This document shows, piece after piece, positions 24,249 through 40,997 of a DNA stretch of 40,997 nucleotides. Origin of the DNA: a virus; the UHGV virus genome UHGV-0123923. The stretch is one strand, 5' to 3'. The notes under the pieces were generated by a model that saw nothing but the letters and a program-made list of their open reading frames with translations, did not search any database and was not told the DNA's origin. Position 1 is the stretch's first letter; every line of letters starts with the position of its first letter. Position numbers and translations under genes: made by a program.

Positions 24249-24253
24249 ACTGA

Positions 24254-24366: not shown

Positions 24367-24546
24367 CCACCTGAGCTTGTGAAGTATGAACAAGCGACCG
24401 CGGCGCGGGCAGGTAACGGAGCGGGACGTAAGTCCTGAGTGTAGTTACGCTGACGCGTTCGGAAGGGCCATACTCTATTGCTTGTGTAAAAAGTAACTTG
24501 TTTACTGAGATTACGCCGTTTCTATGTTTAAATGATAAGGACTAGC

Positions 24547-24566
24547 GCCCCGCTTTAAGGCGGGGC
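24547..24566. other. conserved GC hairpin element, copy 2 (GCCCCGC-TTTAAG-GCGGGGC), terminator-like on the + strand
   Basis: same stem and flanks as 13054..13073 in inverted orientation; followed by TTTACTT; 24 nt upstream of the Rz start. Confidence 0.5.
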
Positions 24567-24590
24567 TTTACTTATCGAGAAAGGGGAAAC

Positions 24591-24977
24591 ATGAATCTTA
24601 AAGCAACTGTCGTAGCGGGAGCATGTTTCATCATCCTGGCTTACGCACACGGCATCTACCAGTATCGCAGCGGCTGGAACGGAGGCCGGGCGAATCTCGT
24701 TTCGCAGCAACAGCAGAAAGCACAGGCTGAGTTAGCTAAGAAAACACAACGGCAGCAGCAGGATGAATCGAAGGCCGCCGCCGCTGATAACGAAGGCAAG
24801 ACGAAATCAGAGGTAATCACCCGTGAAGTCGTTAAGTACATTAAAACGCCTGGCCGCAGCGTGTGCACTTTTGACCCTGAGCGCGTGCAGCTCAAGTCCC
24901 GCGCCGTCGCAAACGCCAATTCCATCCCCGGATACGACGATGATGCAGCCGCCGTGCAAACTGGCACTGCCAAGTAA
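24591..24977 (+). CDS. i-spanin (Rz-like)
   Basis: AAAGGGGAAAC RBS; N-terminal TM segment followed by a Gln/Lys/Ala-rich helical region; overlapped by a lipoprotein gene in another frame. Confidence 0.6.
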   Translation: MNLKATVVAGACFIILAYAHGIYQYRSGWNGGRANLVSQQQQKAQAELAKKTQRQQQDESKAAAADNEGKTKSEVITREVVKYIKTPGRSVCTFDPERVQLKSRAVANANSIPGYDDDAAAVQTGTAK

Positions 24978-25086
24978 CGACGCGGACGAGGATTTAGCTA
25001 TTGACGTCCAGAACGCAGAATGTGTACGGCAACTGAGACTTAAAGTGTTCATGTTGCAGGATTACGTGAGGAATATTCTGGAATAG
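24823..25086 (+). CDS. o-spanin (Rz1-like outer-membrane lipoprotein)
   Basis: GTG start inside Rz in a different frame; lipobox LSAC after a signal-like segment, then a Pro-rich region; extends beyond the Rz stop. Confidence 0.6.
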   Translation: MKSLSTLKRLAAACALLTLSACSSSPAPSQTPIPSPDTTMMQPPCKLALPSNDADEDLAIDVQNAECVRQLRLKVFMLQDYVRNILE

Positions 25087-25165
25087 TTGCCTTGTATGTT
25101 GGAATAATTTATTCTTGACATGTAAATCCGGGTGGCCCGGATTCCAACGTCCAGGGGACATACTG

Positions 25166-25792
25166 ATGAGCGAAGAAGTGAAAGACGAAACTATCGAACA
25201 ACAAGAGACTAAGACCACGTTTACCAAAGAAGAAGTTGACGCGCTGGTATCCGGTCTTAAAGCTAACAACGAGAAGCTCTTGTCTGAAAAGAAAGCTGCT
25301 GCCGCTGCTGCGAAAGAAGCCGCAGATGCGAAGCTGAAAGCCGAACAGGAACGCGCAAAACAGAACGGCGAACTTGAGGCATTCGAGAAAACGTTGCGCA
25401 GTCAGTATGAGCCAGTACTCGCCGAGAAAGACGGTAAGATTAGCAAAATGGCTGAGCGTATCCTCGGCGCAGAACGTAAATCAGTTATCAGCCAGTTGTC
25501 TGGCATGTTGATTGATGAGAGCGCAGCGGATATTATCGCTATGATGGTCAAGACCGAATTTGACGGCGATGACGTTGTGACCAAGTTCACAGGTGCAGAT
25601 GGTAATGTCATCACCACCGACGCAGAGCAATTTAAAAAGTATCTGCGTGAGCACAAAGCATTTTCGCATCTGATTAAAGCAGATGCAGCAACCGGCGGCG
25701 GGGCTTCCGGTAACAAAAATTCTACTGGCGGGGCCGGTGGTGCGGACGTAATCCAGCAAAAACTTAACGCCAAATACGGCAAACGAGGATAA
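25166..25792 (+). CDS. scaffolding protein
   Basis: start moved to ATG (MSEEVKDET) behind AGGGGA; helical, charged, Ala/Lys/Glu-rich; immediately upstream of the major capsid gene. Confidence 0.6.
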   Translation: MSEEVKDETIEQQETKTTFTKEEVDALVSGLKANNEKLLSEKKAAAAAAKEAADAKLKAEQERAKQNGELEAFEKTLRSQYEPVLAEKDGKISKMAERILGAERKSVISQLSGMLIDESAADIIAMMVKTEFDGDDVVTKFTGADGNVITTDAEQFKKYLREHKAFSHLIKADAATGGGASGNKNSTGGAGGADVIQQKLNAKYGKRG

Positions 25793-25798
25793 CAGAAT

Positions 25799-26767
25799 AT
25801 GTCTCTGTCAGATATGAAGGTTTATAACGACGATATCGTCGGTACCACTATCGAACTGCTTGGCCAGAAAACTGACCAGTTTAACGCAGCCTCCGGTGGC
25901 GCAATTGTACTGTCTACCGCTTCATGGCGCGGTGACTTCTCCCGTGAGTCTTTCTTTAACCAGATTGCCTCCGCTAAACGCCGCGTTGACCGTTACGCCG
26001 CTATCGCGTCTCAGGCAGCTACCGCGCTGACTCAGGGCGAGCGTGTAGGCGTTAAAGTCGCTGGCGGCTTCGGACCGGTACTGTTCGAGCCTGCGCAAAT
26101 GACCTGGCTGAACGAAGACCCGGCGAGCGCGATTCGTGCTATCTCCGAAGGGTTCTCTGACGCACTGTTAGCTGACCAGCTTAACACCGCTGTTGGTGCC
26201 GCCGTTGCCGCGGTATCAGGTCAGGCTGCACTGGTTAACGATGTATCCGCGACCGCTGGCTTGTCCCTGAACGTGCTGAACAACAGCCACGCTAAATTCG
26301 GCGACCAGTCTCAGTTGTTGGTCACTGACATCATGACCGGCGCGGCATACCACACTCTGGTGGACAAAGCGCTGACCAACGCAAACCAGTTGTTCGTTGC
26401 TGGCAACGTTATGGTTGTCGATGTTCTCGGCAAGCGTTACGTAATTTCCGACATCCCTGCGCTGTACGAAGCTGGCACCCCGAACAAGACTAAGGTTCTG
26501 TCCGTAGTTGCGAACGGCATCATCGTTGATAATGCTTCTGATATTATCAGCAACATTGACACCAGCAACGGTAACACCCGCATCCAGACCACCTGGCAGG
26601 CGGACTACAGCTTCGGCCTGAAACTGAAAGGCTACAGCTGGGACGTTACCAACGGCGGTAAATCTCCGCTGGACGCAGAACTGTTCACCGCGACTAACTG
26701 GGACAAAGCTGTTGCCGAGAACAAGCACACCCTCGGTACTCTGGCAATCGCCGACGCAGACCTGTAA
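25799..26767 (+). CDS. major capsid protein
   Basis: 322 aa after the scaffold; GAGGATAA RBS; strong terminator immediately downstream. Confidence 0.75.
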   Translation: MSLSDMKVYNDDIVGTTIELLGQKTDQFNAASGGAIVLSTASWRGDFSRESFFNQIASAKRRVDRYAAIASQAATALTQGERVGVKVAGGFGPVLFEPAQMTWLNEDPASAIRAISEGFSDALLADQLNTAVGAAVAAVSGQAALVNDVSATAGLSLNVLNNSHAKFGDQSQLLVTDIMTGAAYHTLVDKALTNANQLFVAGNVMVVDVLGKRYVISDIPALYEAGTPNKTKVLSVVANGIIVDNASDIISNIDTSNGNTRIQTTWQADYSFGLKLKGYSWDVTNGGKSPLDAELFTATNWDKAVAENKHTLGTLAIADADL

Positions 26768-26789
26768 CACGGTTAGTAGTAAAAACAAA

Positions 26790-26810
26790 GGGGCTTCGGC
26801 CCCTTTTTAC
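26790..26810 (+). terminator. intrinsic terminator after the major capsid gene
   Basis: GGGGC-TTCG-GCCCC followed by TTTTTAC. Confidence 0.7.
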
Positions 26811-26824
26811 TAGGAGAAATTAAA

Positions 26825-26992
26825 GTGGAAATTAAATACGTACCAATGCCAATTACCATCGAGCAGAAGCGCGAGTATAACCGTCAGGGGTTCCGTGTGG
26901 TAGATGCTCGTTTCGCACCAGAAGGCACCGTGGTAGAATCGGCTAAAGAAGAGACACCACGCCGCCAGCGCCGGGCGAAATCAGAGGAATAA
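26825..26992 (+). CDS. hypothetical small protein (55 aa), GTG start
   Basis: TAGGAGA RBS 7 nt before GTG; translation VEIKYVPMPITIEQKREYNRQGFRVVDARFAPEGTVVESAKEETPRRQRRAKSEE. Confidence 0.35.
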   Translation: MEIKYVPMPITIEQKREYNRQGFRVVDARFAPEGTVVESAKEETPRRQRRAKSEE

Positions 26993-26995
26993 TTT

Positions 26996-27508
26996 ATGCC
27001 GCTAATCGTGGAAGATGGGTCGATAGTACCTGATGCCGACAGTTACGTTAGTCTGGCCGACGCCCGCGCGTTAGCGGCTAATTACGGTCTTGTGTTGCCG
27101 GCAGACGATACCGCCGCAGAGGTGGCCCTGCGCAACGGTGCTACTTATGTTGGGCTTGCAGAACCTCAGATGTGCGGGCGTCGCGTATCCGCTGAACAGT
27201 CTCTGGCGTACCCACGTACAGGAACAACACTAAACGGCTTCACCGTAGCGGATAATGTTATCCCGTCGCAGATAATCCGGGCACAAGTAATCGCTGCTGT
27301 TACGTATGGTGCGGGTACTGATGTTCGGGCTAACTCAGATGGGCGTTCCGTGCAGACTGAGCGTGTTGAGGGTGCTGTGACAGTGACATACTTCAACAAC
27401 GGCAACAGTGGCGCCACAACCGCTATTACCGCTGCGGACGACGCATTACGCCCGTTACTGTGTGGTGGTCTTAACAATGGCTTCTCGTTTAACGTGTACC
27501 GGGGTTAA
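26996..27508 (+). CDS. head-tail connector/adaptor protein candidate
   Basis: GAGGAATAA RBS; position after the capsid gene; N-terminal MPLIVEDGSIVPDADSYVSLADA resembles gp6-like connector proteins (from memory). Confidence 0.45.
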   Translation: MPLIVEDGSIVPDADSYVSLADARALAANYGLVLPADDTAAEVALRNGATYVGLAEPQMCGRRVSAEQSLAYPRTGTTLNGFTVADNVIPSQIIRAQVIAAVTYGAGTDVRANSDGRSVQTERVEGAVTVTYFNNGNSGATTAITAADDALRPLLCGGLNNGFSFNVYRG

Positions 27509-27510
27509 AA

Positions 27511-28125
27511 ATGGCAAAGACCAAAACAGAGATGTTTGCCCTTATCGGCGCTAACCTTCCCGATAACACCACCGGGCTTATCACACCCGAGAAGTTACGC
27601 GAAGTAATGACGCAGATGGCAGATTCGCCTATCTATGCCACTCCCGGGGTGAAAGAGGTTGAAGTTCTCCGTGCCGCGTCCACTGTAATACTAGCACCAT
27701 CCGCAGTGGACACAGCATTGCAAATAACTTTCGGTGCTGCCCAGGGAGGCGCGTCTAACCCGGTAATGATTAATGCCGCAGGGCTTGTTACATTCAACAC
27801 CGCGGGTAACTACGCCGTTCGCATCAAGTTACAGGCGGGGCGTACTGGCGCTAGTGGGACATCAATCCTGCTATCACGTATTTTAGTAAACGGTGCTCAG
27901 TACGGCTCTCCCGCAGCAACTAAGCTGGTAAGCGCGGACGTGACCATCCCGATTGAATCTCGCGTCGTTATTAACACAACCGCAGGCCAGACGTTTGCCG
28001 TTCAGATTATGCGGGATAGTGCCGGGACCAACTTCGGCGGCGTATATCCGCAAGTTGCTACCGTAACCGCATGGGGTACAGCACCATCCGCATTACTGGT
28101 TATTTCGAGACTGGAGGCCGCTTGA
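27511..28125 (+). CDS. virion structural protein, function unknown
   Basis: position in the head-tail joining block. Confidence 0.4.
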   Translation: MAKTKTEMFALIGANLPDNTTGLITPEKLREVMTQMADSPIYATPGVKEVEVLRAASTVILAPSAVDTALQITFGAAQGGASNPVMINAAGLVTFNTAGNYAVRIKLQAGRTGASGTSILLSRILVNGAQYGSPAATKLVSADVTIPIESRVVINTTAGQTFAVQIMRDSAGTNFGGVYPQVATVTAWGTAPSALLVISRLEAA

Positions 28126-28219
28126 TGAATAAGTTCACATGTGGTGTAGTTTTTGGTTTTCTTACCGCGGTAGTCTTGCACAGTTACGGTGTTCTTTTGA
28201 CGCTGCAAGAGGTGCTAAA

Positions 28220-28579
28220 ATGAGCACCGCTTTCAGTAAACGTATGCAAGGCGTGGGTACGCGCCTGCTAACCAAATTCGGTAGCACGGTATCTCTGATT
28301 CGCGCTGGTTCAAAAGTATGGGATGAAGTTCTCGGTGAGTACGTCTGGTCTGCGGATGAAGTGTTGCCGTTGAAGGCCGTTCCGGTTCCGGTAAACGCGG
28401 GACTGGTAAACGGTACGACGATTCAGGCTGGCGACATGATTGTTAAAGCCGATTACAGCGTCGTTCCGAAGATGGAAGACAAGGTGCAATTCGGCGGCGA
28501 GCAATGGTCCATCGTAGCTATTGAGAAGAAGATGGTTAACGATGACGTCGTGGCATACTTTATTCAGGTGAGAAAATGA
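28220..28579 (+). CDS. head-tail joining protein candidate
   Basis: start moved to ATG (MSTAFSKRMQ) behind GAGGTG; position. Confidence 0.4.
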   Translation: MSTAFSKRMQGVGTRLLTKFGSTVSLIRAGSKVWDEVLGEYVWSADEVLPLKAVPVPVNAGLVNGTTIQAGDMIVKADYSVVPKMEDKVQFGGEQWSIVAIEKKMVNDDVVAYFIQVRK

Positions 28580-28971
28580 GTTTCGCGCTCGATGTCTCTA
28601 AGTTCGTGGAAAAGGCGAAGAAGAACCCTGAGAAGGTGATGCGTCAGGTGTCTATCAAGCTGTTTTCCGCTATTATAAAGGCGAGTCCGGTAGACACGGG
28701 CCGCTTTCGTATGAACTGGATGGCATCTGGCGGTACTCCTGCTTCCGGGATTACGGACGCTACGGATAAATCAGGAAGCACAGCAACCGGAAACGCTACG
28801 AGTTTCGTGCTGAAAGCCGCTGACTGGCATGAGTTCACGCTGACAAATAATCTGCCGTATGCGCAACGGCTGGAGTATGGTTGGTCGCAACAGGCGCCAG
28901 CCGGGGTTGTCAGGACTAATGTGTCTCGCTTCCAGCAACTCATTAACGAAGAAGCCAACAAGGTGAAATGA
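28576..28971 (+). CDS. HK97 gp10-like tail component candidate
   Basis: motif SPVDTGRFRMNW; ATGA overlap with the upstream gene. Confidence 0.45.
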   Translation: MSFALDVSKFVEKAKKNPEKVMRQVSIKLFSAIIKASPVDTGRFRMNWMASGGTPASGITDATDKSGSTATGNATSFVLKAADWHEFTLTNNLPYAQRLEYGWSQQAPAGVVRTNVSRFQQLINEEANKVK

Positions 28972-29384
28972 TGGGCTACTTTGAGGACTTAACAAAAGCG
29001 TTCGATGTTCCGCTGGTAGCCTTCGGAACCGCCAACGGCATCAAGGTCGCGCTTGAAAACATCGACGCGCCGACGTCAACCGATACGCCATATCTGGCAA
29101 GTTACATGTTACTGGCGGATACCGAGCAAGCAGATTTGTTCTTCACGGAACAACGCGCGGGTGTTTATCAGGTCGACATTAACTACGCATCGGTGAAAGG
29201 TAGCGCGCCAATCAATAAAATGGCAGACTTACTTAACACGGCATTCAAAGCAGGTAAGTCATTTTCTCGTAACGACATCTGCGCCGAGGTTCAATCGGTT
29301 AGCCTGGGGCCGCTGATTGTAGAAAACGGATGGGCCAAACGACCATTGTCAATTAACTTTATCGCATTCACCAAGAGGCTGTGA
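28968..29384 (+). CDS. tail completion/terminator protein candidate
   Basis: position immediately upstream of the major tail gene; overlapping starts. Confidence 0.4.
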   Translation: MMGYFEDLTKAFDVPLVAFGTANGIKVALENIDAPTSTDTPYLASYMLLADTEQADLFFTEQRAGVYQVDINYASVKGSAPINKMADLLNTAFKAGKSFSRNDICAEVQSVSLGPLIVENGWAKRPLSINFIAFTKRL

Positions 29385-30553
29385 ATATGGCTACAACTCC
29401 TTTTAAGGGCGCGAATACTGCGCAATTCTATGTGGCAGAAACTACCCCTGGCGTAACACCGACTAACCCGGTCTGGTCGCCATTGCGTAACACAGGTGGC
29501 GTTCCTGCCATTACCCGCGACACGCTGACCTCCAACGAACTGGACGGCAGCCGTGAAACTACGTCAATACGCACCGGTAACAAGCAGGTTAGCGGAGAAT
29601 ACGCTATTGAGCTTAGCTCGAAAAGCCAGGACGACTGGCTGGCGGGAGCTTTAGGCTCTACATGGCAATCCGGTAGTTCTCTGACCGGGCTATCAATTAC
29701 CGTCGCGCCCGCAGGCAAGACCTTTACCCGTGCCGAAGGTAGCTTTATTTCTGACGGCGTTGAAGTGGGCGACCTGATTGCGTTTACCGACTTAACCGGT
29801 GACAACGCAAAACCGTTTATCGTAACTGCAGTAGAGGCGCTGGTAGTGACCGGGGCGGGTATCCAGCATACCCTGACCACAGAGACAGTAACTACCGCCG
29901 CTAAGACAGGGGATAAACTGGAAACGGGAAGCCAGTGCAAGACGTTCTCTATTCTCACCTGGTACAAAGGCCAGTGCGGCGGGACTGACGCGTACACACT
30001 AACCAAAGGCGTGGAAGTTTCTGGTTTTACCATCGAACAGGCTGTTAACGCTATGGTAACTGGCAGCTTCCCGTTCATCGGTCGCAGTCAGGAGATTCTC
30101 ACCACGCAGCCGTCTGGTTCTGATTTCTCCTCTGTTACGTTTGGTGACGAGCCATTCTCCTCGGTCGATGTTTCTGTGTTCGACGGTTCTACGCCGTTGC
30201 GTTGCGACAGCCTGACCATCACCAACGACAACAGCGCGTCCGCACAGTTCGAACTCGGCAACACTAACGTAGCGTTTGTGGAGCGTAGCCGAGCAGCTAA
30301 CACCTTCTCCATCTCCGGTAAGCTGTACGACATGGCGATGATTCAGAAGTTTATCAACGAGCAGCAGGTGGAGATTAACTCTATTCTGGCTGGGGTAAAC
30401 GGGGCTATGTCTTTCAGTTTGAAACGTGCAGAACTTACAGCGGTTACGCCTGAGATTGGCGGGCCTGAGTCAATCACTCAGTCCATTGAAGGCCAGGCTA
30501 CTGGCAACCAGTACCAGTCATCTATTGTTATTCAGCGTATCACCTACGCTTAA
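29381..30553 (+). CDS. major tail protein
   Basis: 390 aa, Thr/Gly/Ser-rich; last gene before the tail chaperone block; strong terminator downstream. Confidence 0.5.
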   Translation: MNMATTPFKGANTAQFYVAETTPGVTPTNPVWSPLRNTGGVPAITRDTLTSNELDGSRETTSIRTGNKQVSGEYAIELSSKSQDDWLAGALGSTWQSGSSLTGLSITVAPAGKTFTRAEGSFISDGVEVGDLIAFTDLTGDNAKPFIVTAVEALVVTGAGIQHTLTTETVTTAAKTGDKLETGSQCKTFSILTWYKGQCGGTDAYTLTKGVEVSGFTIEQAVNAMVTGSFPFIGRSQEILTTQPSGSDFSSVTFGDEPFSSVDVSVFDGSTPLRCDSLTITNDNSASAQFELGNTNVAFVERSRAANTFSISGKLYDMAMIQKFINEQQVEINSILAGVNGAMSFSLKRAELTAVTPEIGGPESITQSIEGQATGNQYQSSIVIQRITYA

Positions 30554-30558
30554 AACTA

Positions 30559-30581
30559 AGGCCCCGAAAGGGGCCTTTTTC
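30559..30581. terminator. bidirectional intrinsic terminator
   Basis: AGGCCCC-GAAA-GGGGCCT flanked by A-run upstream and TTTTT downstream, between converging + and - genes. Confidence 0.65.
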
Positions 30582-31136
30582 TTACAAACCTAATTTTAAA
30601 GCAATGTCTACAACGTTCGATTTAACGTCACCCGGTATGATGTATGTGTCGTAATCTTTTACACCGCTAACATCATACAGATACTCCCTGCTATCGCCGA
30701 TGAACGTATAGCCGTCTCGGTGCAAGCGAACGATTCTTACATCATGACCTGCGGCGACGATAGGGGCTACTTCGCTGGCGAACCCGCCATCCGACACTAC
30801 AAAAACGTCATCGCCGTCGGGCAAGTTTTCAGCAAGATACTTACCGAAATAATCGCTGCCGAGAACCGGTTTAATGAATTGCTCAGATATAGCAATCATG
30901 AACTGACGCCGCGACAAGCCATTAAGGAAGCCTTCTGGCTTTTCTTTCCGCGCCCGGTCGTCGTAGCCGTCGAGAAACTCGTGGTAAGCATCCGGGCCTA
31001 ACGCCGCCAGAGCGATATTGAACATTGGATTCTTGAAACTGGTAGTTCCTTTCGCAAAGCCCATTTCTACCAGCGCCATAGCAAGTGTGTCTTTCCCACA
31101 ACCCGCCGGGCCATTAAGAATAATTACCTTAGCCAT
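30582..31136 (-). CDS. P-loop kinase, dNMP-kinase-like (GKDT Walker A)
   Basis: 184 aa; ILNGPAGCGKDT resembles the T4 gp1-type dNMP kinase P-loop (from memory); start overlaps the upstream stop (TAATG). Confidence 0.55.
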   Translation of the reverse strand: MAKVIILNGPAGCGKDTLAMALVEMGFAKGTTSFKNPMFNIALAALGPDAYHEFLDGYDDRARKEKPEGFLNGLSRRQFMIAISEQFIKPVLGSDYFGKYLAENLPDGDDVFVVSDGGFASEVAPIVAAGHDVRIVRLHRDGYTFIGDSREYLYDVSGVKDYDTYIIPGDVKSNVVDIALKLGL

Positions 31137-31624
31137 TATTTATCGCTCCCGTGTGATTTTAAGTGTGTAGAGTTCCCGTTACAGTCGTATTCAGTAACCG
31201 CGTGGGTGGTTATACCGAGTCCGCGGAAATGCTTTATTACCGCTGGAGAGTCGTCGAATGCGCACAAGATTCTCTCCAGCCCAATAGCACGCAACACCTC
31301 TTCTTTAATTACGATGTCTTTTCTGATGTCGTGTTTGCTGCGCATTAACAGAACGTCGAACTTGACATTGTTTTTACGTAACCACTCACGAGTTTCTTCC
31401 TCGGCGTCGTCGCTTCGCCCGGTAAGGATGATTATGGTAATCCCGGTATGCCACAGCGTGTTGCACAAGTGAATGTTGTCATATATCGGCGCATCATCTT
31501 TGCACGCCATGTTAAAAGGCTTCCACGCCCATGTTTCGTTGTAGTTATCTTTCGGCAGCAGGTGTAAACGATGTGTACCATCCGCCAATGTTCCATCTAA
31601 ATCGAAAATCACAATATCTTTCAT
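31136..31624 (-). CDS. HAD-family phosphatase, polynucleotide-kinase 3'-phosphatase-like
   Basis: 162 aa; catalytic FDLDGTL, then TGR and DIRKDIVIKEE...AFDD motifs in the order I recall for the T4 Pnk phosphatase domain. Confidence 0.55.
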   Translation of the reverse strand: MKDIVIFDLDGTLADGTHRLHLLPKDNYNETWAWKPFNMACKDDAPIYDNIHLCNTLWHTGITIIILTGRSDDAEEETREWLRKNNVKFDVLLMRSKHDIRKDIVIKEEVLRAIGLERILCAFDDSPAVIKHFRGLGITTHAVTEYDCNGNSTHLKSHGSDK

Positions 31625-32751
31625 CCCAGCATCTCCGGTGAAATAGTTAAACGTGCGACCTCGCCATATTCGGCGCTATAAGTAATTACATTTGCACTAC
31701 GGCCTGACATCCATCCGCCGCGAGAGGCATATGCATCTTTAGCCGCTAGGGTGCGGTGTTGCTCAACAATCATGTTACGGCTTTCTACAATCTTCTGATG
31801 GTGCAGGTGGCCTACGTGAGCGTAACTGTAAACGCTCTCGCCGAACGCTTTACGGAACTTGGCAATCATAACCGGTTCGATAGCGTCGAATCGCGCCTTA
31901 TGCCCGTGGTGAAAGAACAACGTAGTTTTGCCGTGTTGGACCATCTTGTAAACATCCGGCGACGTATCGACGAACACACGAGGCTCATTGTCGTACAGCG
32001 TACTGAACATCTCAGCTAACCAAATCATTCCGCTTTCGTCATGGTTCCCTTGCACAATAAGCAAGCGAACATTTTTATGCTTAACCAGCGCCATATCAAT
32101 AACACGGCGGACCATACGAATCATGTAGCGTACAAGTTTCTGATAGCGCGTGTCGGCGTCAAGAACATGACCGCTTGCGGGTGTAACTGCATCCAGACTA
32201 TCGAAGTGAGCGAGGTCGCCCAGCAGATTAATAACTCCTGTTCCTGCATCCGGAGCTTTCTGGAACGCAGCATCGAACCACCGAGAGAACAGGTCTTCTG
32301 CAATCTTCATATCCCAGTCGTCGCCGCTCTCGTCGGCCCAGGCCAGCATACCGAGATGGAAATCAGATACCGTGTAAAGATTGAGTAGCTTGTCGTCACG
32401 TTTGTCCCGTGCAGGTTTAACAGGTGCAACTGGCGTAATCTCTGACTTCATGCCTTCGATTACGGCTTTCATCAACTCGACCTGACGTTCTGCATCGGTG
32501 TCGGTCTTAACCCATTGCAGTTTAGTGTTGCCAAACTCATCAACCAGTGACGACGTTCCTTTAATCTTGTAGCCATCCGGCACAAGGTGACTAACGTCAC
32601 GCCCGTGACCTACGCCTTTCTTTGCCAATTTCGCTTTACGGATACGAATTACGCGGTCTGAGATGCCGTATTTACGGGCGATGTCTACATTCTTCATCCC
32701 GGCGTTCAATTCTTCCTGTAACTGTTCGTCGGTTATTTTCTTCTGGGCCAT
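31621..32751 (-). CDS. calcineurin-like metallophosphoesterase with N-terminal HTH domain
   Basis: start moved to ATG (MAQKKITDEQ) behind GAGGAAG; metallophosphatase motifs DFH, GDLAH, GNHDE, HHGH, GHLHH; HTH-like N-terminus KNVDIARKYGISDRVIRIRKAKL. Confidence 0.6.
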   Translation of the reverse strand: MAQKKITDEQLQEELNAGMKNVDIARKYGISDRVIRIRKAKLAKKGVGHGRDVSHLVPDGYKIKGTSSLVDEFGNTKLQWVKTDTDAERQVELMKAVIEGMKSEITPVAPVKPARDKRDDKLLNLYTVSDFHLGMLAWADESGDDWDMKIAEDLFSRWFDAAFQKAPDAGTGVINLLGDLAHFDSLDAVTPASGHVLDADTRYQKLVRYMIRMVRRVIDMALVKHKNVRLLIVQGNHDESGMIWLAEMFSTLYDNEPRVFVDTSPDVYKMVQHGKTTLFFHHGHKARFDAIEPVMIAKFRKAFGESVYSYAHVGHLHHQKIVESRNMIVEQHRTLAAKDAYASRGGWMSGRSANVITYSAEYGEVARLTISPEMLG

Positions 32752-32789
32752 GCTTACTTCCTCGTGTTTAGGATTTGTCTTATAGTAGC

Positions 32790-32981
32790 CTACTTCTCTT
32801 TCACGTTCGAGTTGCAAGCCCAGATTAAAATAAATACCCACGGCAGCAGAACCCAACCAAGAAACAGATTAGCCATGAATATTGCCAACTTCGCTTTATG
32901 GTTACGGAAGTACGCAACCAGGAAAGGCGCGAAATAAGCGAGCAGCGCAAACAGAATTAAAGAAACCGGTAAACTGGACAT
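32790..32981 (-). CDS. small two-TM membrane protein resembling superinfection immunity (T4 Imm-like) proteins
   Basis: start at second ATG behind AAGGGG; PFLVAYFRNHKAKLAIFMANLFLGWVLLPWVFILIWA matches the pattern I recall for the Imm_superinfect family. Confidence 0.45.
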   Translation of the reverse strand: MSSLPVSLILFALLAYFAPFLVAYFRNHKAKLAIFMANLFLGWVLLPWVFILIWACNSNVKEK

Positions 32982-33011
32982 TTTAAACCCCTTCATTGTT
33001 GGTGTAAGTGA

Positions 33012-33040
33012 ATAGTACCCTATTATATTGGGGTGCGCAA
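33012..33040 (-). promoter_or_regulatory. promoter (TTGCGC-N17-TACTAT) with operator motif, driving the reverse-strand accessory cassette
   Basis: -35 is the reverse complement of 33035..33040, -10 of 33012..33017; AATAG(33011..33015)-TACC-CTATT(33020..33024); near-identical to promoter 13318..13346. Confidence 0.5.
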
Positions 33041-33148
33041 GTAATGTGATAGAATAATTTTGCGCCTAGTGTCGCACACGAAAAGCGGGTGGTTCCCGTC
33101 TGGCGCATTTATCGTTAACCTGTAACCTCTTAACCAAAGGATTAAAGA

Positions 33149-33565
33149 ATGAAACTTTCTGATTTCTATTTCGAAGAGAAAGCGCTGGTAGGCAAGAAGA
33201 TGCCGATTCTGCTACCAAACGGTGAAGACTCCGGTGAGTGGCTTAATGTGGTAAGCCCTGACGCGGATGTCGCCGTTAAAGCAGGGCGTGCTTTCATTAT
33301 CGCGTACCGCCGCGGGCTGGCGCGTTTTGAAGAACTGGAAAAAGCTGCCAAAGAATCCGGCGACTATACTGAATATAACCTGGCGGTTAACGAACTGGCG
33401 GAAGACCTCAACCGACAACTCGCGGCAGAAGTCGTAAACGGCTGGAGCTTTGATGAGCCTTTCTCTAAGGAAGCGTTTAACAAATTGCTTGACCAGTTCA
33501 AAGCATTAGGTACACAGGTAGCTGCGTTCCATAACGCCGAGCGCAAAGCATTACAGGAAAAGTAG
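33149..33565 (+). CDS. tail assembly chaperone (lambda gpG-like)
   Basis: 138 aa acidic protein immediately upstream of the tape measure; AAAGGA RBS. Confidence 0.6.
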   Translation: MKLSDFYFEEKALVGKKMPILLPNGEDSGEWLNVVSPDADVAVKAGRAFIIAYRRGLARFEELEKAAKESGDYTEYNLAVNELAEDLNRQLAAEVVNGWSFDEPFSKEAFNKLLDQFKALGTQVAAFHNAERKALQEK

Positions 33566-33930
33566 ACGCGCTGTACAGGTTCGCCACCTACGAGTTCGTT
33601 GATAAGCATAAAATCAGAGAGTTTGATTCTATAGCTGACGGACACGAACAGGCGCTTATCGCGATGGGTGTAATCGATAAGAAAAAACGTGCAGCGCGAC
33701 GGGGTGGGCCAGAATGCCCGCCCCTTTTTATATCCACCTTTGAGACGTACTGCGACATTAAGTTTACGCGACACGTGCGCGAGGACGCTGTAGTATTGTT
33801 TGCAAGAGAATCCGTTACGTGGCAAGACCTGAAAGCCTATCTCGATGTTACGCAAAAACAGCTTAGCTTGTTCGAGATAGACATTATCATGGGCTTAGAA
33901 GCAATCTTTGAAGGTAGAAATCATGGCTGA
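33535..33930 (+). CDS. -1 frame extension of the tail assembly chaperone (gpT-like, expressed by frameshift)
   Basis: -1 frame is open from 33535 to a TGA at 33928..33930, overlapping the chaperone 3' end and the tape measure start; candidate slip site CAGGAAAAG at 33554..33562. Confidence 0.4.
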   Translation, partial: RRAQSITGKVDALYRFATYEFVDKHKIREFDSIADGHEQALIAMGVIDKKKRAARRGGPECPPLFISTFETYCDIKFTRHVREDAVVLFARESVTWQDLKAYLDVTQKQLSLFEIDIIMGLEAIFEGRNHG

Positions 33931-36196
33931 TACCGCTAGCTTGATCGTACGAGTATCATCGACCGGCGTCGATAAAACCACATCACAACTGAACGGGCTT
34001 ACCAAAGCCGCGGGGGCCGCCGCCGCTGCCGTTGTCAGTCTGGAAACTGCCAAACAGGTGTTCAGTGCGCTGGTGGACTCCCAGCGCAACTTCGATAAGC
34101 TGAACTCCGGCCTCATCACAATGACCGGGAGCGCCGAGAACGCTGCTAAGGCATTCAGCGTCCTGCAACAGTTCGCAAAAGAAACTCCGTATGGCCTCAA
34201 TCAGGCGGTAGAGGGGTTTACCAAGCTCGTGGCGCTAGGTCTTAACCCCAGCAAAGAGGCGTTAATATCCTACGGCAACACCGCCGCAGCTATGGGCAAA
34301 GACCTTAACCAAATGATTGAGGCAGTTGCCGACGCCAGTACATTTGAATTTGAGCGCTTAAAAGAGTTCGGTATCAAGTCTTCCCAACAGGCGGATACAG
34401 TTTCGTTTACGTTCCGTGGCGTAACGACCACGGTTAAAAAGAACTCCGAAGAGATTCAGAAATACCTGCTAAATATCGGTAACACTGATTTCGCCGGAGC
34501 GATGGAGACGCGCTCGAAGACCTTAGATGGTCAGTTATCTAGCCTGGCGGACTCCTTCGATGGTCTTGTTCTTGCGGTAGCGCAATCCGGTTTTGGCGAC
34601 GCGGTAGGCGAACAAGCGGCAACAGCGGAAGATGCTATCACCGCACTCACCGACGCCATCGCGTCCAATGAGATCTCCGCCACGCTCCAGGATTGGGTGA
34701 CACTGTTCAATGAGTCGTTCAAGTTTATTTCTGATGCCCTGAATGACCTGGCATTCGATACCGAGGACAAATCCGTTGATATGTCCGACTCGCTGGGGGA
34801 TATACCGGATGCCATCCGTGAGTGGTTGCCGGATATCCAGCAGACATTCCACGAGGTTATTGCGTGGTTCCAGCGCATTGACGACTACGCGGTAGCGTTA
34901 GGCCAGACCCTTGCTGATGTGTTTGACCCGAGCAAAACGGCAGCGCTCACATTTAAAAACCTGACCGCAGAGGCTGACGCCGCATACGCCGCCAGCATAA
35001 AACGTGCAGAGGCCGAATCCCAGGCCATTACCGACAGGTCTAAGCAGCGTAAGAAAGAAATTGAGGAACAGCGCAAGCAGTACGACGAGCGTAAGAAGCA
35101 AGAAATTGACTTAGCCAGCCTTGTTAATAAAAAGGGCGGAACTGGTGGGGTGGGGACAACCGACGATAAAGCAGCAAAAGCCTCCGCCAAGAAAGCAGAG
35201 CAATTGCGGAATCAGGCGCAAGATTACCTCGACACTTTGGCCCGTCAGAACAACGACGAGTTAAAGGCTATCGACGCGCAGGAACAGCAGAAACTGGCTA
35301 AGGCAAAAGAGTTCTACAGCCAGGGCGCGTTGTCCCTGAAAGAATATGAACAAGCTAAAACAGCTATCGTCCTCGAAGCCGGGCAAAAACGACAAGATGA
35401 ACTGGATAAACGCCGGAAAGAAGCCCAGGAAAAGCAGCAGAAAGGTGACGACTTCATGGCTCAGATTATGGGTCAGAACGCTACTGAGCTTGAGCTTCTC
35501 GACATCCAGGAACAGCAGAAACTGGCGGTAGCGGATAAGTACCGCGAGCAGGGTTTGATTAGCGAGAAGCAGTATCAGGCCGCTCTTAACGCCATCAACG
35601 AGCAATACGCAACCAAACGTGCCGATGCAACGGCAACGGCCTTTGGTAACATGGCCTCAAACATCGGGTCTGCGTTGGGTGAGGCTTCTGGCGCGTACAA
35701 GGCATTCGCTATCGTACAGGCCACTATCGCCACGTACACCGCAGCTATTGAGGCGTACAAGTCAACGGCAGCTATCCCTGTAGTTGGCCCGTTCCTGGCC
35801 CCTGTAGCCGCTGCCGCTGCCGTTGGTGCAGGTATGGCGCAGGTTTCCGCTATCCGGTCCGCGCGTGAACAGGGCGGACAGTTATCCGCAGGGCAGGCTT
35901 CCACCATCGCAGAACGCGGTAAACCAGAAGTTATTATGCCGGCTGGCGCATCTCGTGTTCGCACAGCACAGCAGATGAAAGAAATTATGGGGCAAAACGG
36001 GTCTTCTTCCGGCCCGTCTAATGTTACTATCGTAAACAACACGAGTTCTCAAATCGGCAACGTATCCACTGAGCAAGATGATGAAGGCCGTTTGCGAATC
36101 ATCATCGAGGAGCAGGTGGCTGCCTCTTTGCAGAACAGCAACAGCAAGATTAGCAAGGCCCGCAAAGCCACAAGAAATGCGCCGGGGTTTAAATAA
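33923..36196 (+). CDS. tail tape measure protein
   Basis: ~757 aa, helical and Ala/Gln/Glu/Lys-rich with Gly/Ala-rich hydrophobic segment; start at ATG behind GAAGGT (track start at 33908 is TTG). Confidence 0.85.
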   Translation: MADTASLIVRVSSTGVDKTTSQLNGLTKAAGAAAAAVVSLETAKQVFSALVDSQRNFDKLNSGLITMTGSAENAAKAFSVLQQFAKETPYGLNQAVEGFTKLVALGLNPSKEALISYGNTAAAMGKDLNQMIEAVADASTFEFERLKEFGIKSSQQADTVSFTFRGVTTTVKKNSEEIQKYLLNIGNTDFAGAMETRSKTLDGQLSSLADSFDGLVLAVAQSGFGDAVGEQAATAEDAITALTDAIASNEISATLQDWVTLFNESFKFISDALNDLAFDTEDKSVDMSDSLGDIPDAIREWLPDIQQTFHEVIAWFQRIDDYAVALGQTLADVFDPSKTAALTFKNLTAEADAAYAASIKRAEAESQAITDRSKQRKKEIEEQRKQYDERKKQEIDLASLVNKKGGTGGVGTTDDKAAKASAKKAEQLRNQAQDYLDTLARQNNDELKAIDAQEQQKLAKAKEFYSQGALSLKEYEQAKTAIVLEAGQKRQDELDKRRKEAQEKQQKGDDFMAQIMGQNATELELLDIQEQQKLAVADKYREQGLISEKQYQAALNAINEQYATKRADATATAFGNMASNIGSALGEASGAYKAFAIVQATIATYTAAIEAYKSTAAIPVVGPFLAPVAAAAAVGAGMAQVSAIRSAREQGGQLSAGQASTIAERGKPEVIMPAGASRVRTAQQMKEIMGQNGSSSGPSNVTIVNNTSSQIGNVSTEQDDEGRLRIIIEEQVAASLQNSNSKISKARKATRNAPGFK

Positions 36197-37596
36197 TGAG
36201 CGACTTATATTTCCCACGTAGCCTTAAGCCAATTGTATCGAAAGGCTACTCAATGACCAGACGTAACAACGTCTGGAGTGTAGATTTAGCCGGTGGCGGG
36301 GTGCGTCAGGGCCGTGACACGTATTACGACGTGTTCCCTGTTAGCGTAACCCTGATTACATCCGCAATGGGGCGACAGGCGTTTCTGTCGTTCCTCGAAA
36401 AAGTAGACGGCGGTGCGTCAAGTTTCTGGATGGCGCACGACTTCGGCATGGGCATCGAAGATTATCAGGTAACCATTACGTCCACTATCGCCGAGTCCAC
36501 CGAAGACGGGATTAACTGGACAATCACCTTCACGGCAACCGCCGAGAAATCGCCGTTCCAGGACCTTGAGAACCAGTGCCTGATTAACAATCTGCCAGAT
36601 TTGTACGGCTGTTACGGGGATTGTCTGGGTAGTTTCCTGAAAATATACGCGAACTATGAGACGACATTCCCTCGCATCTGGAGCGACGAAGGTCCTGCCG
36701 GATATCCGCCGATTAACATGCTGGCATCTACGCTTGATAGCCGCATTGTTTATGAGGGACCACAGGTTTATTACATCAACCGCAATGGTAATCTTGTACA
36801 GTCCGCCGCCAATGAATGGCCTCTTACGTTTATTGACGGGGTTGCCGCCGGGCGCGTGCCACCAGAGGTATCAGTAACTAACAGATTCCTATATTCAAGC
36901 AATTTCTCTTCGTCAAACTGGAACAAAGGTTTGGTTAGTGTATCAGTATCTGAAACAGGTGTTTTAACAGCCGCGGGCACGTACGACGTAACTGCTACCG
37001 CCACAAGCGGTAACCACCTAATAAACCAGACTGTAGATGTTAGCGTCGGTGTTGGCGACAAGGTGACTTTTAGTTTCTTCGCAAAAGCAAACGGATACAA
37101 TTTCATACGGATGTACGTGCGAGAACTTCCTACAGCATTAGGCTCAGCAGTTGTAGATTTGCGGGATGGTAGCATTTATTCCGGCCCAGGCGGTACAGAT
37201 GTAACCGACGTAGGCGGAGGGTGGTTCCGAATATCGGAGACGGTCAACGCGACAGAAGATAAAACAATGAGCATACGGATGGACGCATGGATATATTCAG
37301 ACGGAGTTACCGGGACATTTACGGGGGATGGCGTTTCAGGGATTAAATTATCCGCGGCTACTGTAGAGGTAAACCAAAATACAACATCACCAATAATTAC
37401 GGCGGCGTCTCCTGTAACACGCCCCGCGGCATCGGCAAAAGTAGTAATGAACGGCGCAACAAGCATCGGCATTACCTACTCCGACGGCTCTGTGGTAGAC
37501 GTTCAGGCTGTTGACGGTTACGCCACCATCCCACAGGCGGATTCTGCGTGGGGTAGTAAATACGTCACCCGTATTGATTTTAATGTGGACGGTTAA
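36196..37596 (+). CDS. distal tail protein candidate with large C-terminal extension
   Basis: 466 aa directly after the tape measure (ATGA overlap); Thr/Ser/Gly/Val-rich C-terminal region suggests beta-sandwich or carbohydrate-binding modules. Confidence 0.45.
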   Translation: MSDLYFPRSLKPIVSKGYSMTRRNNVWSVDLAGGGVRQGRDTYYDVFPVSVTLITSAMGRQAFLSFLEKVDGGASSFWMAHDFGMGIEDYQVTITSTIAESTEDGINWTITFTATAEKSPFQDLENQCLINNLPDLYGCYGDCLGSFLKIYANYETTFPRIWSDEGPAGYPPINMLASTLDSRIVYEGPQVYYINRNGNLVQSAANEWPLTFIDGVAAGRVPPEVSVTNRFLYSSNFSSSNWNKGLVSVSVSETGVLTAAGTYDVTATATSGNHLINQTVDVSVGVGDKVTFSFFAKANGYNFIRMYVRELPTALGSAVVDLRDGSIYSGPGGTDVTDVGGGWFRISETVNATEDKTMSIRMDAWIYSDGVTGTFTGDGVSGIKLSAATVEVNQNTTSPIITAASPVTRPAASAKVVMNGATSIGITYSDGSVVDVQAVDGYATIPQADSAWGSKYVTRIDFNVDG

Positions 37597-37599
37597 TTT

Positions 37600-38115
37600 A
37601 TGAGTCAGGAATCAGTAGAAGCTGCCTATCGCCGTAAGTTGGCATCAAATCCAGACGGCGAGATGGACTACGTAACGTTGCAAATCAGCCACCCGTTGCT
37701 GTCGAAGACGTACTATCTTGTGCGCGGGCTGCAGGAACTTACGGCGACACTGGAAACCGGCGAAACTATCACATTCGAACCCACCCCGATGGAAGCGTCG
37801 GGGGCCGCTAACAACAGTGATATGGACCAGACTACCACGTTTACTCTACCGGATATTCTCAATCAACTGGATGATGAGATGGATAAAATCCCGATGAGTA
37901 ACACCGAGTTGCCGAAATTCGTCTTCCGCCGTTATGTCAGTACCGACCTGTCTTATCCGGCGGACGGCCCGGTCGTGTACGAGTTACAGGCTATCAACCA
38001 GGAGAAAGGCGAGTTCTCCGCAGATGTCGGTACACCTATGCTGAACCAACGGAGCACTGGTATACTGATGACACCTAAAGAGATACCGTTATTGCGCGGC
38101 CTGTTGACCACATGA
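37600..38115 (+). CDS. minor tail protein
   Basis: 171 aa; position between distal tail and NlpC/P60-like genes. Confidence 0.45.
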   Translation: MSQESVEAAYRRKLASNPDGEMDYVTLQISHPLLSKTYYLVRGLQELTATLETGETITFEPTPMEASGAANNSDMDQTTTFTLPDILNQLDDEMDKIPMSNTELPKFVFRRYVSTDLSYPADGPVVYELQAINQEKGEFSADVGTPMLNQRSTGILMTPKEIPLLRGLLTT

Positions 38116-38477
38116 ATATTAACGACTACACGGGAATACCTTACGACTTTCGCAAACGTAATTGCTGGCACCATGTGCGCATTGTCCGCGCGGATGCCGG
38201 GTTAGAAACCCCGGCGTTCGACGTTACAAGCCCAACGGCAATTAACGACGCGTTTGACGAAGGCCACCGCAACACGAAGGGGCTTACGAAAATTGATAAG
38301 CCTGAAAACTTCTGTGCGGTGCTTATGGGGTATCGCCGTGGCGGTCGTATTGTGTGGCACGCGGGAGTTTACTTCGACGGGATGGTTAGCCATTGCGAAC
38401 TTGCTTCACGTCAGGTACGGCTGGACAGGCTGGCGGACCTCAGAGACACGTACACGGAGATTGAATTTTGGCGATAA
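38112..38477 (+). CDS. tail assembly protein with NlpC/P60-like Cys-His peptidase motif (lambda gpK-like)
   Basis: 121 aa; NCWHHV (Cys) and WHAGVYF (His). Confidence 0.55.
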   Translation: MNINDYTGIPYDFRKRNCWHHVRIVRADAGLETPAFDVTSPTAINDAFDEGHRNTKGLTKIDKPENFCAVLMGYRRGGRIVWHAGVYFDGMVSHCELASRQVRLDRLADLRDTYTEIEFWR

Positions 38478-38533
38478 TTCTGCACTACACGCGAAACGCT
38501 GATGGCGCTTTCGGCCGTACAAAACACGTCGGG

Positions 38534-40997
38534 ATGCCGATGGAGTTTGTCGTTAGTCGTATCCCTGACGGCGTGCCGGTGCGCGTCTACCTCGGTGAGA
38601 TTGGCGATGATACAGACGTAACGGACGACTTCGACGCGCTTAAAGATGAAGACGCTGTGTACCACATTATTGAGGGTGCGGGTAGCGGGGCGCTCGGTGC
38701 GGTTAGTAAGGTGTTTGGTTTTATCCTTAAGCCAATCGCCAAGTTGTTTGGCCTGAACACGGCCGCCAACGCCAACTACACGGCGACTAACAACCAGACA
38801 ACATCACCAAATAACAGCCTCACAGACCGCTCAAACAAACCACGCCCTTACGAGCGCTCCTATGACATCTGCGGGACTGTGCAGACAATCCCTAATGACC
38901 TGATGCAGACGTATAAGGCGTTCAACTCCACTGGTGCTTTGCTGGAGTATTCGTACTATGACGCAGGGCGCGGACATCTGCATATTGAGGCTGATGGCGT
39001 CACAGAGGGCGACACCCTGATAAGCGACATCACAGGTTCATCTGTTGCCGTATACGCGCCGTATACGTCACCGAACAACACCACATCGCCGCAACTACAA
39101 ATCGGCGACGTCATCGACCAGAAACTCTATGTGACGTACTCTAACGACGACGTTGACGGTATTGTACTGAAAGCGCCAAACGACATTGGAGCTAACCCAA
39201 GCGCCGACGGCACAGCTAAACGTATTTCAAACACCGGCTACATTTATGACCCGTCAGGGGACTCTGCTTTTTCTGAGTTTCTTAGCGTCGGGGATGTCGC
39301 GGTTCTGAGCAACTTCGACGTTGCTGATGTGACTAACCTGAATGGTTCGTTTGAGGTTTTATACGTTGACGACTTCGAAGTGAGATTAGCCGTAAACGGC
39401 GCGTCTAACTGGGCAGCGTTGACCAGCGGGCAAACGTACGCCCTAACAGAGCGTTCAGATACGTTTATCGGCCCGAGCAACACCTATGACGTATCTCTTA
39501 CGGACTGGTATTACATGGTGCGCGGAGAGGTTGACCGGGTACTTGCTAACGTTGCCGGGCAGAACGGCCTCTACAAATACGACGGAGGCTATAACCGCAC
39601 CAGTGTAACGGTGGAACTCCAGTACCAGATGATTGATTCTCAGCGTAACCCGTTGAGCGATATTTACACGGTACAGGCCACAATTACAGGCAACAATACG
39701 GATTACGTCGGTACGTCTATCTACGGGCAATTGCCGACCGCGTCCCGTTTCCGCGCCCGTATGCGTCGTGTAACTAATTTCGATAAAGACTACGACGGTA
39801 CGGTAAGCGACGAGATAACATTCATTAACCTGTATGGGCAGTCTCTGGACACCACTCCACACTACGGCAACAGAACTACCGTACATTGCGCCCGTAAACA
39901 GACGCCGCGTGCCGCCAGCATAGACAACCCGGAACTGCGCATGATTGCAACCGAGATGTGTTACAAATACCTCGGCAATGGGGTATTCGATACAGTAATG
40001 ACACCGAACACGCAAGCCGTACAATCTCTAATTCGACTGGCGCGCGACCCCGCAGTAGGCAATCTGGAACTGACAACGGCAAACATGGACAAGTTACTTG
40101 CTGTGCAGGAAGAAATTGAGTCCTATTTCGGAAGTGAATTAGCAGGGCAATTCTGCTACACGTTCGACGACTATGACACAACCATGCAGGACATCGTCCA
40201 GACCATAGCGGAAGCCGTTTTCTGTACTGCGTACCGTAAAGGTGCGGATATTATGCTGCGATTCGACCGTCCTGTCGCGGGGCCTGAAATGGTGTTCACC
40301 CACCGCAGCAAAACTACCGGTACAGAGAAATGGACCCGCACGTTCAACGATTCGACAACCTACGATAGCCTGTCGTTCTCATACATCGACCCGGATACTA
40401 ACGTACAGGAAACGATTTACATCCCGGAAGAACTGGGTGCAAATACGGAGGAATACGAATCAAAGGGCGTGCGTAACTACCAACAGGCATATTGGCTGGC
40501 GTGGCGTCGCTATCAGCGCAATGCGTTAAGTAAAGTTGTTGTAGAGTTCGAAGCTACGGAAGAAGGTGCGCTCGCTACGCCCGGTGGGGTAATCAGCGTA
40601 GTTAAAGGTTCACGTATCGCGCCACAGGACGGCTATGTTGTTGCCGTTAACGGGCTTACACTTACGCTATCCCAGCCTGTTACGTTTACTCCTGGCGACG
40701 ACCACTCCATCATTCTTAAGAAGCGCGATGGCTCAGTGCAGAGTATCTCTGTCATCAAAGGAAGACACGACCGCGAAGTGATTATGCTCTCCGCGCCGGA
40801 GGAGGCAATCTACACGGGGAATAGCGCACTAAAAACTGAGTTTTCATTCGGCAACGAAGCAAGGCATAATGCCCAGAAGATAGTTGTTTCTTCAATCGAC
40901 CCTGGCGACGACCGCACGGTCAAGATTACTGGCTACAACTATGACGACGGATTCTATAAATACGACGGCGTCGCGCCATACGGCAGCGGTTTCTCCG
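38534..40997 (+). CDS. tail tip / host specificity protein (lambda gpI/gpJ-like), 3' partial at window end
   Basis: I traced one frame codon by codon from ATG 38534 to the last base with no stop (at least 821 codons); absent from the ORF track, presumably because it lacks an in-window stop; start codon uncertain (TTG 38468 also possible). Confidence 0.6.
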   Translation, partial: MPMEFVVSRIPDGVPVRVYLGEIGDDTDVTDDFDALKDEDAVYHIIEGAGSGALGAVSKVFGFILKPIAKLFGLNTAANANYTATNNQTTSPNNSLTDRSNKPRPYERSYDICGTVQTIPNDLMQTYKAFNSTGALLEYSYYDAGRGHLHIEADGVTEGDTLISDITGSSVAVYAPYTSPNNTTSPQLQIGDVIDQKLYVTYSNDDVDGIVLKAPNDIGANPSADGTAKRISNTGYIYDPSGDSAFSEFLSVGDVAVLSNFDVADVTNLNGSFEVLYVDDFEVRLAVNGASNWAALTSGQTYALTERSDTFIGPSNTYDVSLTDWYYMVRGEVDRVLANVAGQNGLYKYDGGYNRTSVTVELQYQMIDSQRNPLSDIYTVQATITGNNTDYVGTSIYGQLPTASRFRARMRRVTNFDKDYDGTVSDEITFINLYGQSLDTTPHYGNRTTVHCARKQTPRAASIDNPELRMIATEMCYKYLGNGVFDTVMTPNTQAVQSLIRLARDPAVGNLELTTANMDKLLAVQEEIESYFGSELAGQFCYTFDDYDTTMQDIVQTIAEAVFCTAYRKGADIMLRFDRPVAGPEMVFTHRSKTTGTEKWTRTFNDSTTYDSLSFSYIDPDTNVQETIYIPEELGANTEEYESKGVRNYQQAYWLAWRRYQRNALSKVVVEFEATEEGALATPGGVISVVKGSRIAPQDGYVVAVNGLTLTLSQPVTFTPGDDHSIILKKRDGSVQSISVIKGRHDREVIMLSAPEEAIYTGNSALKTEFSFGNEARHNAQKIVVSSIDPGDDRTVKITGYNYDDGFYKYDGVAPYGSGFS

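Follow-up and report, generated by a model that had tools for sequence, protein, structure and literature searches.

A Kagunavirus genome, almost certainly complete, that is opened inside its tail-tip hub gene

In the genus Kagunavirus (Guernseyvirinae), the gene for the tail-tip hub is followed by the gene for the tailspike (PMC11990801), and the public genome records of this genus are opened at many different points. Phage K1H was deposited as a circular record in which the hub gene is intact, since its numbering begins at the terminase gene. The XY1 (MN927225) record is instead opened inside the tailspike gene, with the result that the tailspike is absent from its annotation. Structural information on a related tail tip comes from the Shigella siphophage Sf11, where chain E of PDB entry 9OCC is the "baseplate hub 2 protein"; each virion contains three copies of it. 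The Sf11 tailspikes are suspended from an adaptor helix in the distal tail protein, and the tube is closed by the hub (PMC12724387).

Here, we discuss the viral genome UHGV-0123923, referred to as the window, i.e., the whole stretch of DNA of 40,997 nucleotides that was analyzed. In megablast, 442 phage records match the region, and the genus is Kagunavirus; the best match is Kagunavirus LF7074P3 (98.8% identity), followed by K1H, K1G, K1ind1-3, and others. A first-pass annotation proposed that a J-like tail-tip gene extends past the window end and that the window is a complete circular or circularly permuted genome of about 41.0 kb linearized inside this gene. The proposal agrees with what we find, with the provision that "circular" applies to the assembly only. 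The window is almost certainly a complete unit-length Kagunavirus genome of 40,997 bp, opened inside the hub gene; the phage is a siphophage and belongs to the K1G/K1H group within Guernseyvirinae. The coordinates of the features discussed below are collected in Table 1.

Table 1. Tail-tip and terminase features of the window
Feature	Coordinates	Strand	Assignment or remark
Tail-tip hub gene, 3′ end (last two bases of the split GAC, seven codons encoding GFSNGFN, and TAA at 24..26)	1..26	+	
Shine-Dalgarno-like AAAGAGGA of the tailspike gene, overlapping the hub stop codon	25..32	+	Same in K1H and LF7074P3
Tailspike gene, 649 aa	39..1988	+	phrog_29731 "tail spike protein", E 1.7e-50, residues 1-114
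Small terminase gene	19338..19922	+	Assignments of the terminase pair: phrog_3064, phrog_2, PF03237/PF17289
Large terminase gene (TerL)	19919..21169	+	Assignments of the terminase pair: as above
Tape measure protein gene	33908..36196	+	phrog_1538, E 7.6e-195
Distal tail protein, 466 aa	36196..37596	+	Sf11 gp17 (9OCC_C), E 4e-92
Minor tail protein, DUF1833, 171 aa	37600..38115	+	PF08875, 59.7 bits; phrog_396
Minor tail protein, 121 aa	38112..38477	+	phrog_329, E 4.6e-12
Tail-tip hub gene, 5′ part, from its most likely start (843 codons and the first base of codon 844)	38468..40997	+	TipJ family/baseplate hub protein 2

The reading frame and the junction at the window ends

The frame that begins at ATG 38534 was originally traced by hand as having no stop through 40997. 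Direct reading of the sequence and a scripted join of the two ends both bear this out, giving 821 codons and one additional base. The last base of the window (G, position 40997) together with bases 1-2 (AC) forms GAC, after which the frame continues GGA TTC AGC AAT GGT TTT AAT and ends at TAA, exactly as had been predicted; the joined product across the ends reads ...GSGFS-D-GFSNGFN. Direct reading also confirms that the ribosome-binding site of the tailspike gene and its ATG at 39 come right after the hub stop. The distance from the hub stop to the tailspike ATG is 13 nt and is equal to that in K1H (20168 to 20181), which supports the earlier claim that the tail-tip gene is followed directly by the tailspike gene. 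It should be noted that a stop would be encountered by chance within nine codons of a random continuation in roughly 35% of cases (1-(61/64)^9). Hence, closure of the frame is by itself weak evidence, and homology is decisive.

In a blastn comparison of the whole window, positions 40997 and 1 correspond to the neighboring bases 21016 and 21017 of LF7074P3, with window 28219..40997 aligning to LF7074P3 8235..21016 and window 1..415 aligning to 21017..21431. Comparison of the junction with K1H and LF7074P3 over 141 nt (55 nt before the join and 86 nt after it) revealed that both phages agree with the joined sequence at all aligned positions from 40 nt upstream to 62 nt downstream of the junction. 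This fully matching stretch covers the hub stop, the ribosome-binding site, and the next ATG. Moreover, 34 phage records align unbroken through the join when the query consists of the last 600 and the first 600 nt of the window (1200 nt in total), and a 30-mer that spans the junction is internal to 21 IMG/VR contigs of 5-45 kb. A scripted comparison of the window ends detected no exact overlap of at least 8 nt, and blastn-short with the last 1000 nt against the first 1000 nt returned only chance 9-13-mers. Given that the two ends are adjacent in LF7074P3 and that there is no terminal overlap, the window represents one unit length with nothing missing. As judged by these alignments, the join is exact, with no base missing and no sequence duplicated. 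A 10-nt repeat, CGACGGATTC, which occurs at 40945 and across the junction, was considered as a terminal redundancy; it codes for DDGF/SDGF, is present in K1H, and was judged to be a chance occurrence.

At the level of the whole genome, the window is collinear with LF7074P3 (40,766 bp) as a single rotation. In this rotation, window 19890..40997 corresponds to LF7074P3 1..21016 and window 1..19888 to LF7074P3 21017..40765, and approximately 35.2 kb of the 41.0 kb aligns with 85-97% identity. Window 2000-20000 is approximately 95% identical to K1ind3, K1G, and K1H, with a coverage of 91-94%, and every module of the relatives' genomes is present once. The records of LF7074P3, K1H, and K1G/K1ind open at the equivalent of window 19890-19919; those of K1ind3, K1G, and K1H start at the ATG of the large terminase gene, window position 19919. 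The gene order is collinear and the genome-wide similarity is high as estimated by blastn rather than by VIRIDIC, which places the window in Kagunavirus on the basis of a nucleotide similarity of about 70% or more across the genome together with collinear gene order. At the assembly level, the ends are contiguous, with neither gap nor overlap, in independent relatives.

These data bear on two alternative explanations. The closure might be due to chance, the window ends being real physical termini or the contig being incomplete with further sequence between 40997 and 1. The rate at which a random continuation meets a stop, given above, means that frame closure proves little against such a scenario. 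However, no extra sequence is present between the corresponding positions in LF7074P3 or K1H, where the ends are adjacent, and both phages match fully on either side of the junction. Moreover, the joined protein has the same length as K1H gp27 and aligns with it without gaps, and the relatives' modules are each represented once. This alternative is effectively refuted, and we assign it a negligible probability. The window might also be something other than a unit genome, namely a fragment of a larger replicon (a concatemer, for example, or a chromosomal prophage), although nothing was found in favor of this. It is extremely improbable: in length and content, the window equals a single Kagunavirus genome rotated once, no sequence is repeated at its two ends, and there is neither flanking bacterial sequence nor a tRNA (Rfam and tRNA scans of the window returned nothing). 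In addition, the phage-characterization papers considered describe their Kagunavirus and Jerseyvirus isolates as lytic. Hence, a complete genome of unit length that would close on itself is the preferred reading.

The region 12772..14780, which has no ORF of at least 80 aa, was also considered as an anomaly and dismissed, as it is packed with plus-strand ORFs of 50-70 aa, which is typical of early regions.

The hub gene and its tail-gene neighbors

The start of the hub gene was first placed at ATG 38534. This assignment did not hold: the gene most likely starts at TTG 38468, 66 nt further upstream, and ATG 38534 is probably internal. An in-frame stop is present upstream at 38462..38464, and TTG 38468 is positioned eight bases past a GGAG; from this TTG, the hub gene shares its first 10 nt with the end of the preceding ORF, stop included. 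Initiation at this TTG adds 22 residues (MAIILHYTRNADGAFGRTKHVG), and homologues that are only 68% identical conserve them as MA(I/L)(I/V/T)(L/I)HYTRNxDGxF. These homologues carry SPLNF or PPMEY where the phage has MPMEF and thus have no Met equivalent to that encoded at 38534. Gene gp27 of K1H is annotated from the position equivalent to TTG 38468, and the alignment with Sf11 gp14 begins at comparable residues, 32 here and 34 in Sf11. Public gene calls are divided between the two starts, yielding proteins of either 848-855 or 824-829 aa. The conservation of the extension in homologues that lack the Met of 38534, together with the annotation of K1H, provides the rationale for choosing 38468.

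Translated from TTG 38468, the joined hub protein is 851 aa long, and 837 of its 851 residues match those of K1H gp27, also 851 aa, from end to end with no gaps. The protein belongs to NCBIfam NF040662 (host specificity factor TipJ family phage tail protein), with a score of 382.7 bits (E 2e-114) relative to the curated cut-off of 140 bits; residues 354-831 match profile positions 4-477 of 477. Its sole strong match to a solved structure is Sf11 gp14 (9OCC_E; E 4.5e-26). A profile built from 12 hub sequences reaches gpJ of phage lambda (8IYK_J and 9E7M) with E values of 2-4e-4. The hub scores below the Pfam gathering thresholds for Phage-tail_3 (PF13550; 19.0 bits vs 23) and FNIII-A_GpJ (PF24801; 17.1 vs 27). 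Profile comparison therefore supports a remote homology between the hub and lambda gpJ, and it does not support membership of PF13550 or PF24801. Considering that the TipJ family threshold is passed, that the profile reaches gpJ, and that the protein is homologous to baseplate hub protein 2 of Sf11, the label "J-like" that the gene had been given is fair, the precise name being TipJ-family baseplate hub protein. AlphaFold2 prediction, for which P0003 (96% identical to the hub) and 11 homologues were used as a 12-sequence alignment, gave an unusable model (mean pLDDT 41.6, pTM 0.33), and the fold was thus not independently confirmed.

The C terminus of the joined protein, ...GVAPYGSGFSDGFSNGFN, is the commonest among homologues and is identical in 59 of the 120 best homologue clusters. 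It is part of a Gly/Phe-rich tail of approximately 20 residues (...DGVAPYGSGFSDGFSNGFN), a portion of which crosses the junction. Neither the TipJ profile nor the solved Sf11 hub extends as far as this tail, whose GFSxGFSNG core shows no variation at identities as low as 68%. It is conceivable, albeit rather unlikely, that the tail is a dedicated functional peptide of Guernseyvirinae hubs and not a mere spacer; it could, for example, serve as a plug or be involved in docking or in contact with the membrane.

The neighboring genes fit a tail tip of the Sf11 type, i.e., homologues of the distal tail protein (gp17) and of hub 2 (gp14) occur in this order and are followed by the tailspike gene. 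The 171-aa DUF1833 protein is encoded where Sf11 has baseplate hub protein 1 (gp16, 156 aa), to which it is similar in size; a sequence search for this protein in PDB gave no match. In the XY1 annotation, the equivalent of the 121-aa minor tail protein appears as a peptidoglycan endopeptidase. The tailspike consists of a conserved N-terminal anchor (window nt 1..416) and a swapped receptor-binding module (nt 454..1987), and tailspike is also the annotation at the same place in the relatives. Its pectate-lyase-like PF12708 match reaches 25.2 bits, under the cut-off of 27, and no match was found between the tailspike and Sf11 gp13.

By homology to Sf11, the hub would be a trimer that closes the tail tube at its tip, beneath the ring of the distal tail protein, and the trimeric state is suggested by analogy with the three copies in that phage. 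The distal tail protein is likely to be the anchor for the tailspikes. The product of the gene that follows the hub would then dock on the distal tail protein and recognize a surface glycan. Hence, an Sf11-like arrangement, in which the hub seals the tube and the distal tail protein carries the tailspikes, is most likely, given the homology of the components.

Terminase family and packaging mode

The large terminase matches Terminase_6N/6C and, more weakly, Terminase_3/PBSX. In the family scan, it had no match to the HK97-type Terminase_1 at E<=0.01 and none to the lambda-type GpA, and a sequence search against PDB gave no match. It is 54% identical to the TerL of Jerseyviruses, including the Kenyan isolates. 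For Jerseyvirus K47, headful packaging was deduced from PhageTerm, from an EcoRV restriction profile that is circular-like, and from a broad band in PFGE (PMC10783031), and the ends of Jerseyvirus SeF1 have been described as "redundant, permuted" (PMC9409062). Headful/pac packaging has also been predicted for the Guernseyvirinae-like phages Sciku and Shashou. On the basis of these relatives and the terminase family, headful packaging is the most likely mode, and the virion DNA, which is linear, is probably permuted. Published relatives are usually linearized in the terminase region (19338..21169), which would also be the expected location of a pac site.

Headful packaging would generate terminally redundant, circularly permuted linear molecules, the assembly of which would close on itself. 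The circular assembly was almost certainly written out from an arbitrary base, in this case one inside the tail-tip hub gene, such that the gene looks open at 40997 with its last eight codons and the stop falling at 1..26. For UHGV-0123923, circular closure is suggested by sequence comparison, and permutation by the relatives and the terminase family. Alternatively, the genome could be complete and closing while the virion molecules, rather than being permuted, all terminate at fixed cos ends close to the terminase genes; closure of the contig would then reflect the sequencing of ligated or concatemeric ends. In favor of this possibility, a TerL tree places the K1G-like terminases in a "3′ cos HK97" clade (PMC11641727). 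PhageTerm found no termini in Kagunavirus fBC-Eco01, a result that fits either mode and does not discriminate between them. The family scan, with matches to Terminase_6N/6C in place of HK97-type Terminase_1, does not support the placement of K1G-like TerL in the 3′ cos HK97 group. Together with the similarity to the TerL of the Jerseyviruses, whose packaging is headful according to three types of data, and the predictions for Sciku and Shashou, this argues against fixed ends, which we consider improbable. Even with cos ends, the interruption of the hub gene would still have to be regarded as an artefact. The assembly closes under headful and cos packaging alike, and the opening point is consequently arbitrary.

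Published Kagunavirus genomes already show the hub gene, the tailspike gene next to it, the spacing of 13 nt, and circular closure. The hub gene looks truncated only through the point of linearization; nothing is missing and nothing is unusual. The value of this result is practical. In a record rotated to open before the small terminase gene (approximately at 19338), gene callers recover the intact 851-aa hub; without rotation, they are left with a truncated ORF and an orphan tail of 26 nt. The completeness of the window also helps in interpreting other findings in this genome. No new biology follows from it.

Comparison with K1H, Sf11, and lambda gpJ

The closest of the described systems is K1H, in which gp27 ("tail protein", YP_009168859.1) is followed by gp28 (NC_027994.1, 17613..20168 and 20181..23135). 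The start equivalent to TTG 38468 shows the same overlap with the upstream gene, and the C terminus, the stop, the ribosome-binding site, and the 13-nt spacing are identical. The difference lies downstream, where K1H has a 984-aa K1-capsule tail protein, whereas the window encodes a 649-aa tailspike with another receptor-binding module.

The hub of Sf11, gp14 (PDB 9OCC, chain E), is homologous and of comparable length, 828 aa compared with 851 aa here. The Sf11 gene order, with the tape measure protein followed by the distal tail protein, hub 1, a small protein, hub 2, and the tailspike, is that of the window. However, the similarity between gp14 and the window hub is moderate only, and the middle third is unaligned. 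Moreover, gp14 stops near the end of the TipJ domain and, in contrast to the window hub, does not have the Gly/Phe-rich tail of approximately 20 residues.

For lambda gpJ (PDB 8IYK), residues 395-762 of the hub profile align with gpJ residues 144-533 (E 4e-4). As in the window, gpJ is encoded by the last large tail-tip gene, which comes after the tape measure and minor tail protein genes. The lambda protein is longer, 1132 aa relative to 851 aa, and there is no alignment past its residue 533. Beyond this residue, gpJ carries the central fiber and the receptor-binding end. Unlike in lambda gpJ, host recognition in the window phage is delegated to a separate tailspike.

Hub gene start and C-terminal tail

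The gene for the TipJ-family baseplate hub protein runs across the ends of the window. The first-pass annotation had read its frame from ATG 38534; this reading needs correction, and the start is most likely TTG 38468, 66 nt further upstream. The public gene calls for the homologues are divided between the equivalents of these two codons. TTG 38468 overlaps the stop of the upstream ORF (38112..38477) by 10 nt, which suggests that the two genes are translationally coupled. At the other end of the protein, the C-terminal tail lies outside the TipJ profile, which ends at residue 831, and Sf11 gp14, the baseplate hub 2 protein of this Shigella siphophage, terminates before the equivalent region. 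Nevertheless, seven residues in this tail (F842, S843, G845, F846, S847, N848, and G849) are invariant in all 12 sequences compared, down to 68% identity.

Features of the window, with positions
Feature	Window position	Size or sequence	Module boundary
Hub protein C-terminal tail	40938..40997 + 1..23	last ~20 residues, DGVAPYGSGFSDGFSNGFN	
Tailspike gene	39..1988		about 416..454
Perfect tandem repeat	13779..13825	24 bp, TCCGTATAACTGACCGCAGGCTTG x2	
Large terminase (TerL) gene	19919..21169		
Distal tail protein	36196..37596	466 aa	

A public "complete genome", MN927225.1 (Escherichia phage vB_EcoS_XY1), opens within its tailspike gene, 383 nt beyond the hub gene stop, and its annotation lacks the tailspike CDS. 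This is a linearisation artefact of the same kind as in the window.

Composition of the tailspike gene

Judged from its nucleotide matches, the tailspike gene is a chimera. The N-terminal module (nt 1..416) matches the N-termini of other Kagunavirus tailspikes at 88-90% identity, while nt 454..1987 share 94.8% identity with the 3′ part of a gene in Escherichia phage KM02 (PQ179042.1). This T7-like podovirus is a Kayfunavirus with E. coli K-12 as isolation host. The KM02 gene encodes 737 aa and sits at the tail-fibre position. LF7074P3, the closest whole-genome relative, carries an unrelated module at the equivalent of nt 454..1987. It looks as if a siphovirus and a podovirus have recently exchanged a receptor-binding module.

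The early region carries the only tandem repeat found in the whole window, which is located among small ORFs.

Comparison of the terminase and distal tail protein with known phages

The window TerL matches the Terminase_6N/6C family, and the family scan gave no match to Terminase_1. Its identity is at least 95% to the proteins of about 70 records in addition to K1ind2 and fTaEco01, but falls to only 54.5% with the Bas70 protein, also from a Kagunavirus, and to about 54% with Jerseyvirus TerL. Kagunavirus holds two TerL lineages, and their presence within one genus suggests that the packaging module has been swapped within the subfamily. Published statements on packaging in the subfamily conflict: a TerL tree places K1G-like phages in "3′ cos HK97" (PMC11641727), whereas PhageTerm, restriction, and PFGE data indicate headful packaging in jerseyviruses (PMC10783031).

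The distal tail protein matches Sf11 gp17, its counterpart in the solved tail (E 4e-92). Its residues 226-411 form a domain that matches the "phage head spike fiber" domain found in the Rhodobacter capsulatus gene transfer agent, both by NF048003 (100.9 bits) and by PDB 6TB9 Rcc01080 (E 2.7e-10).
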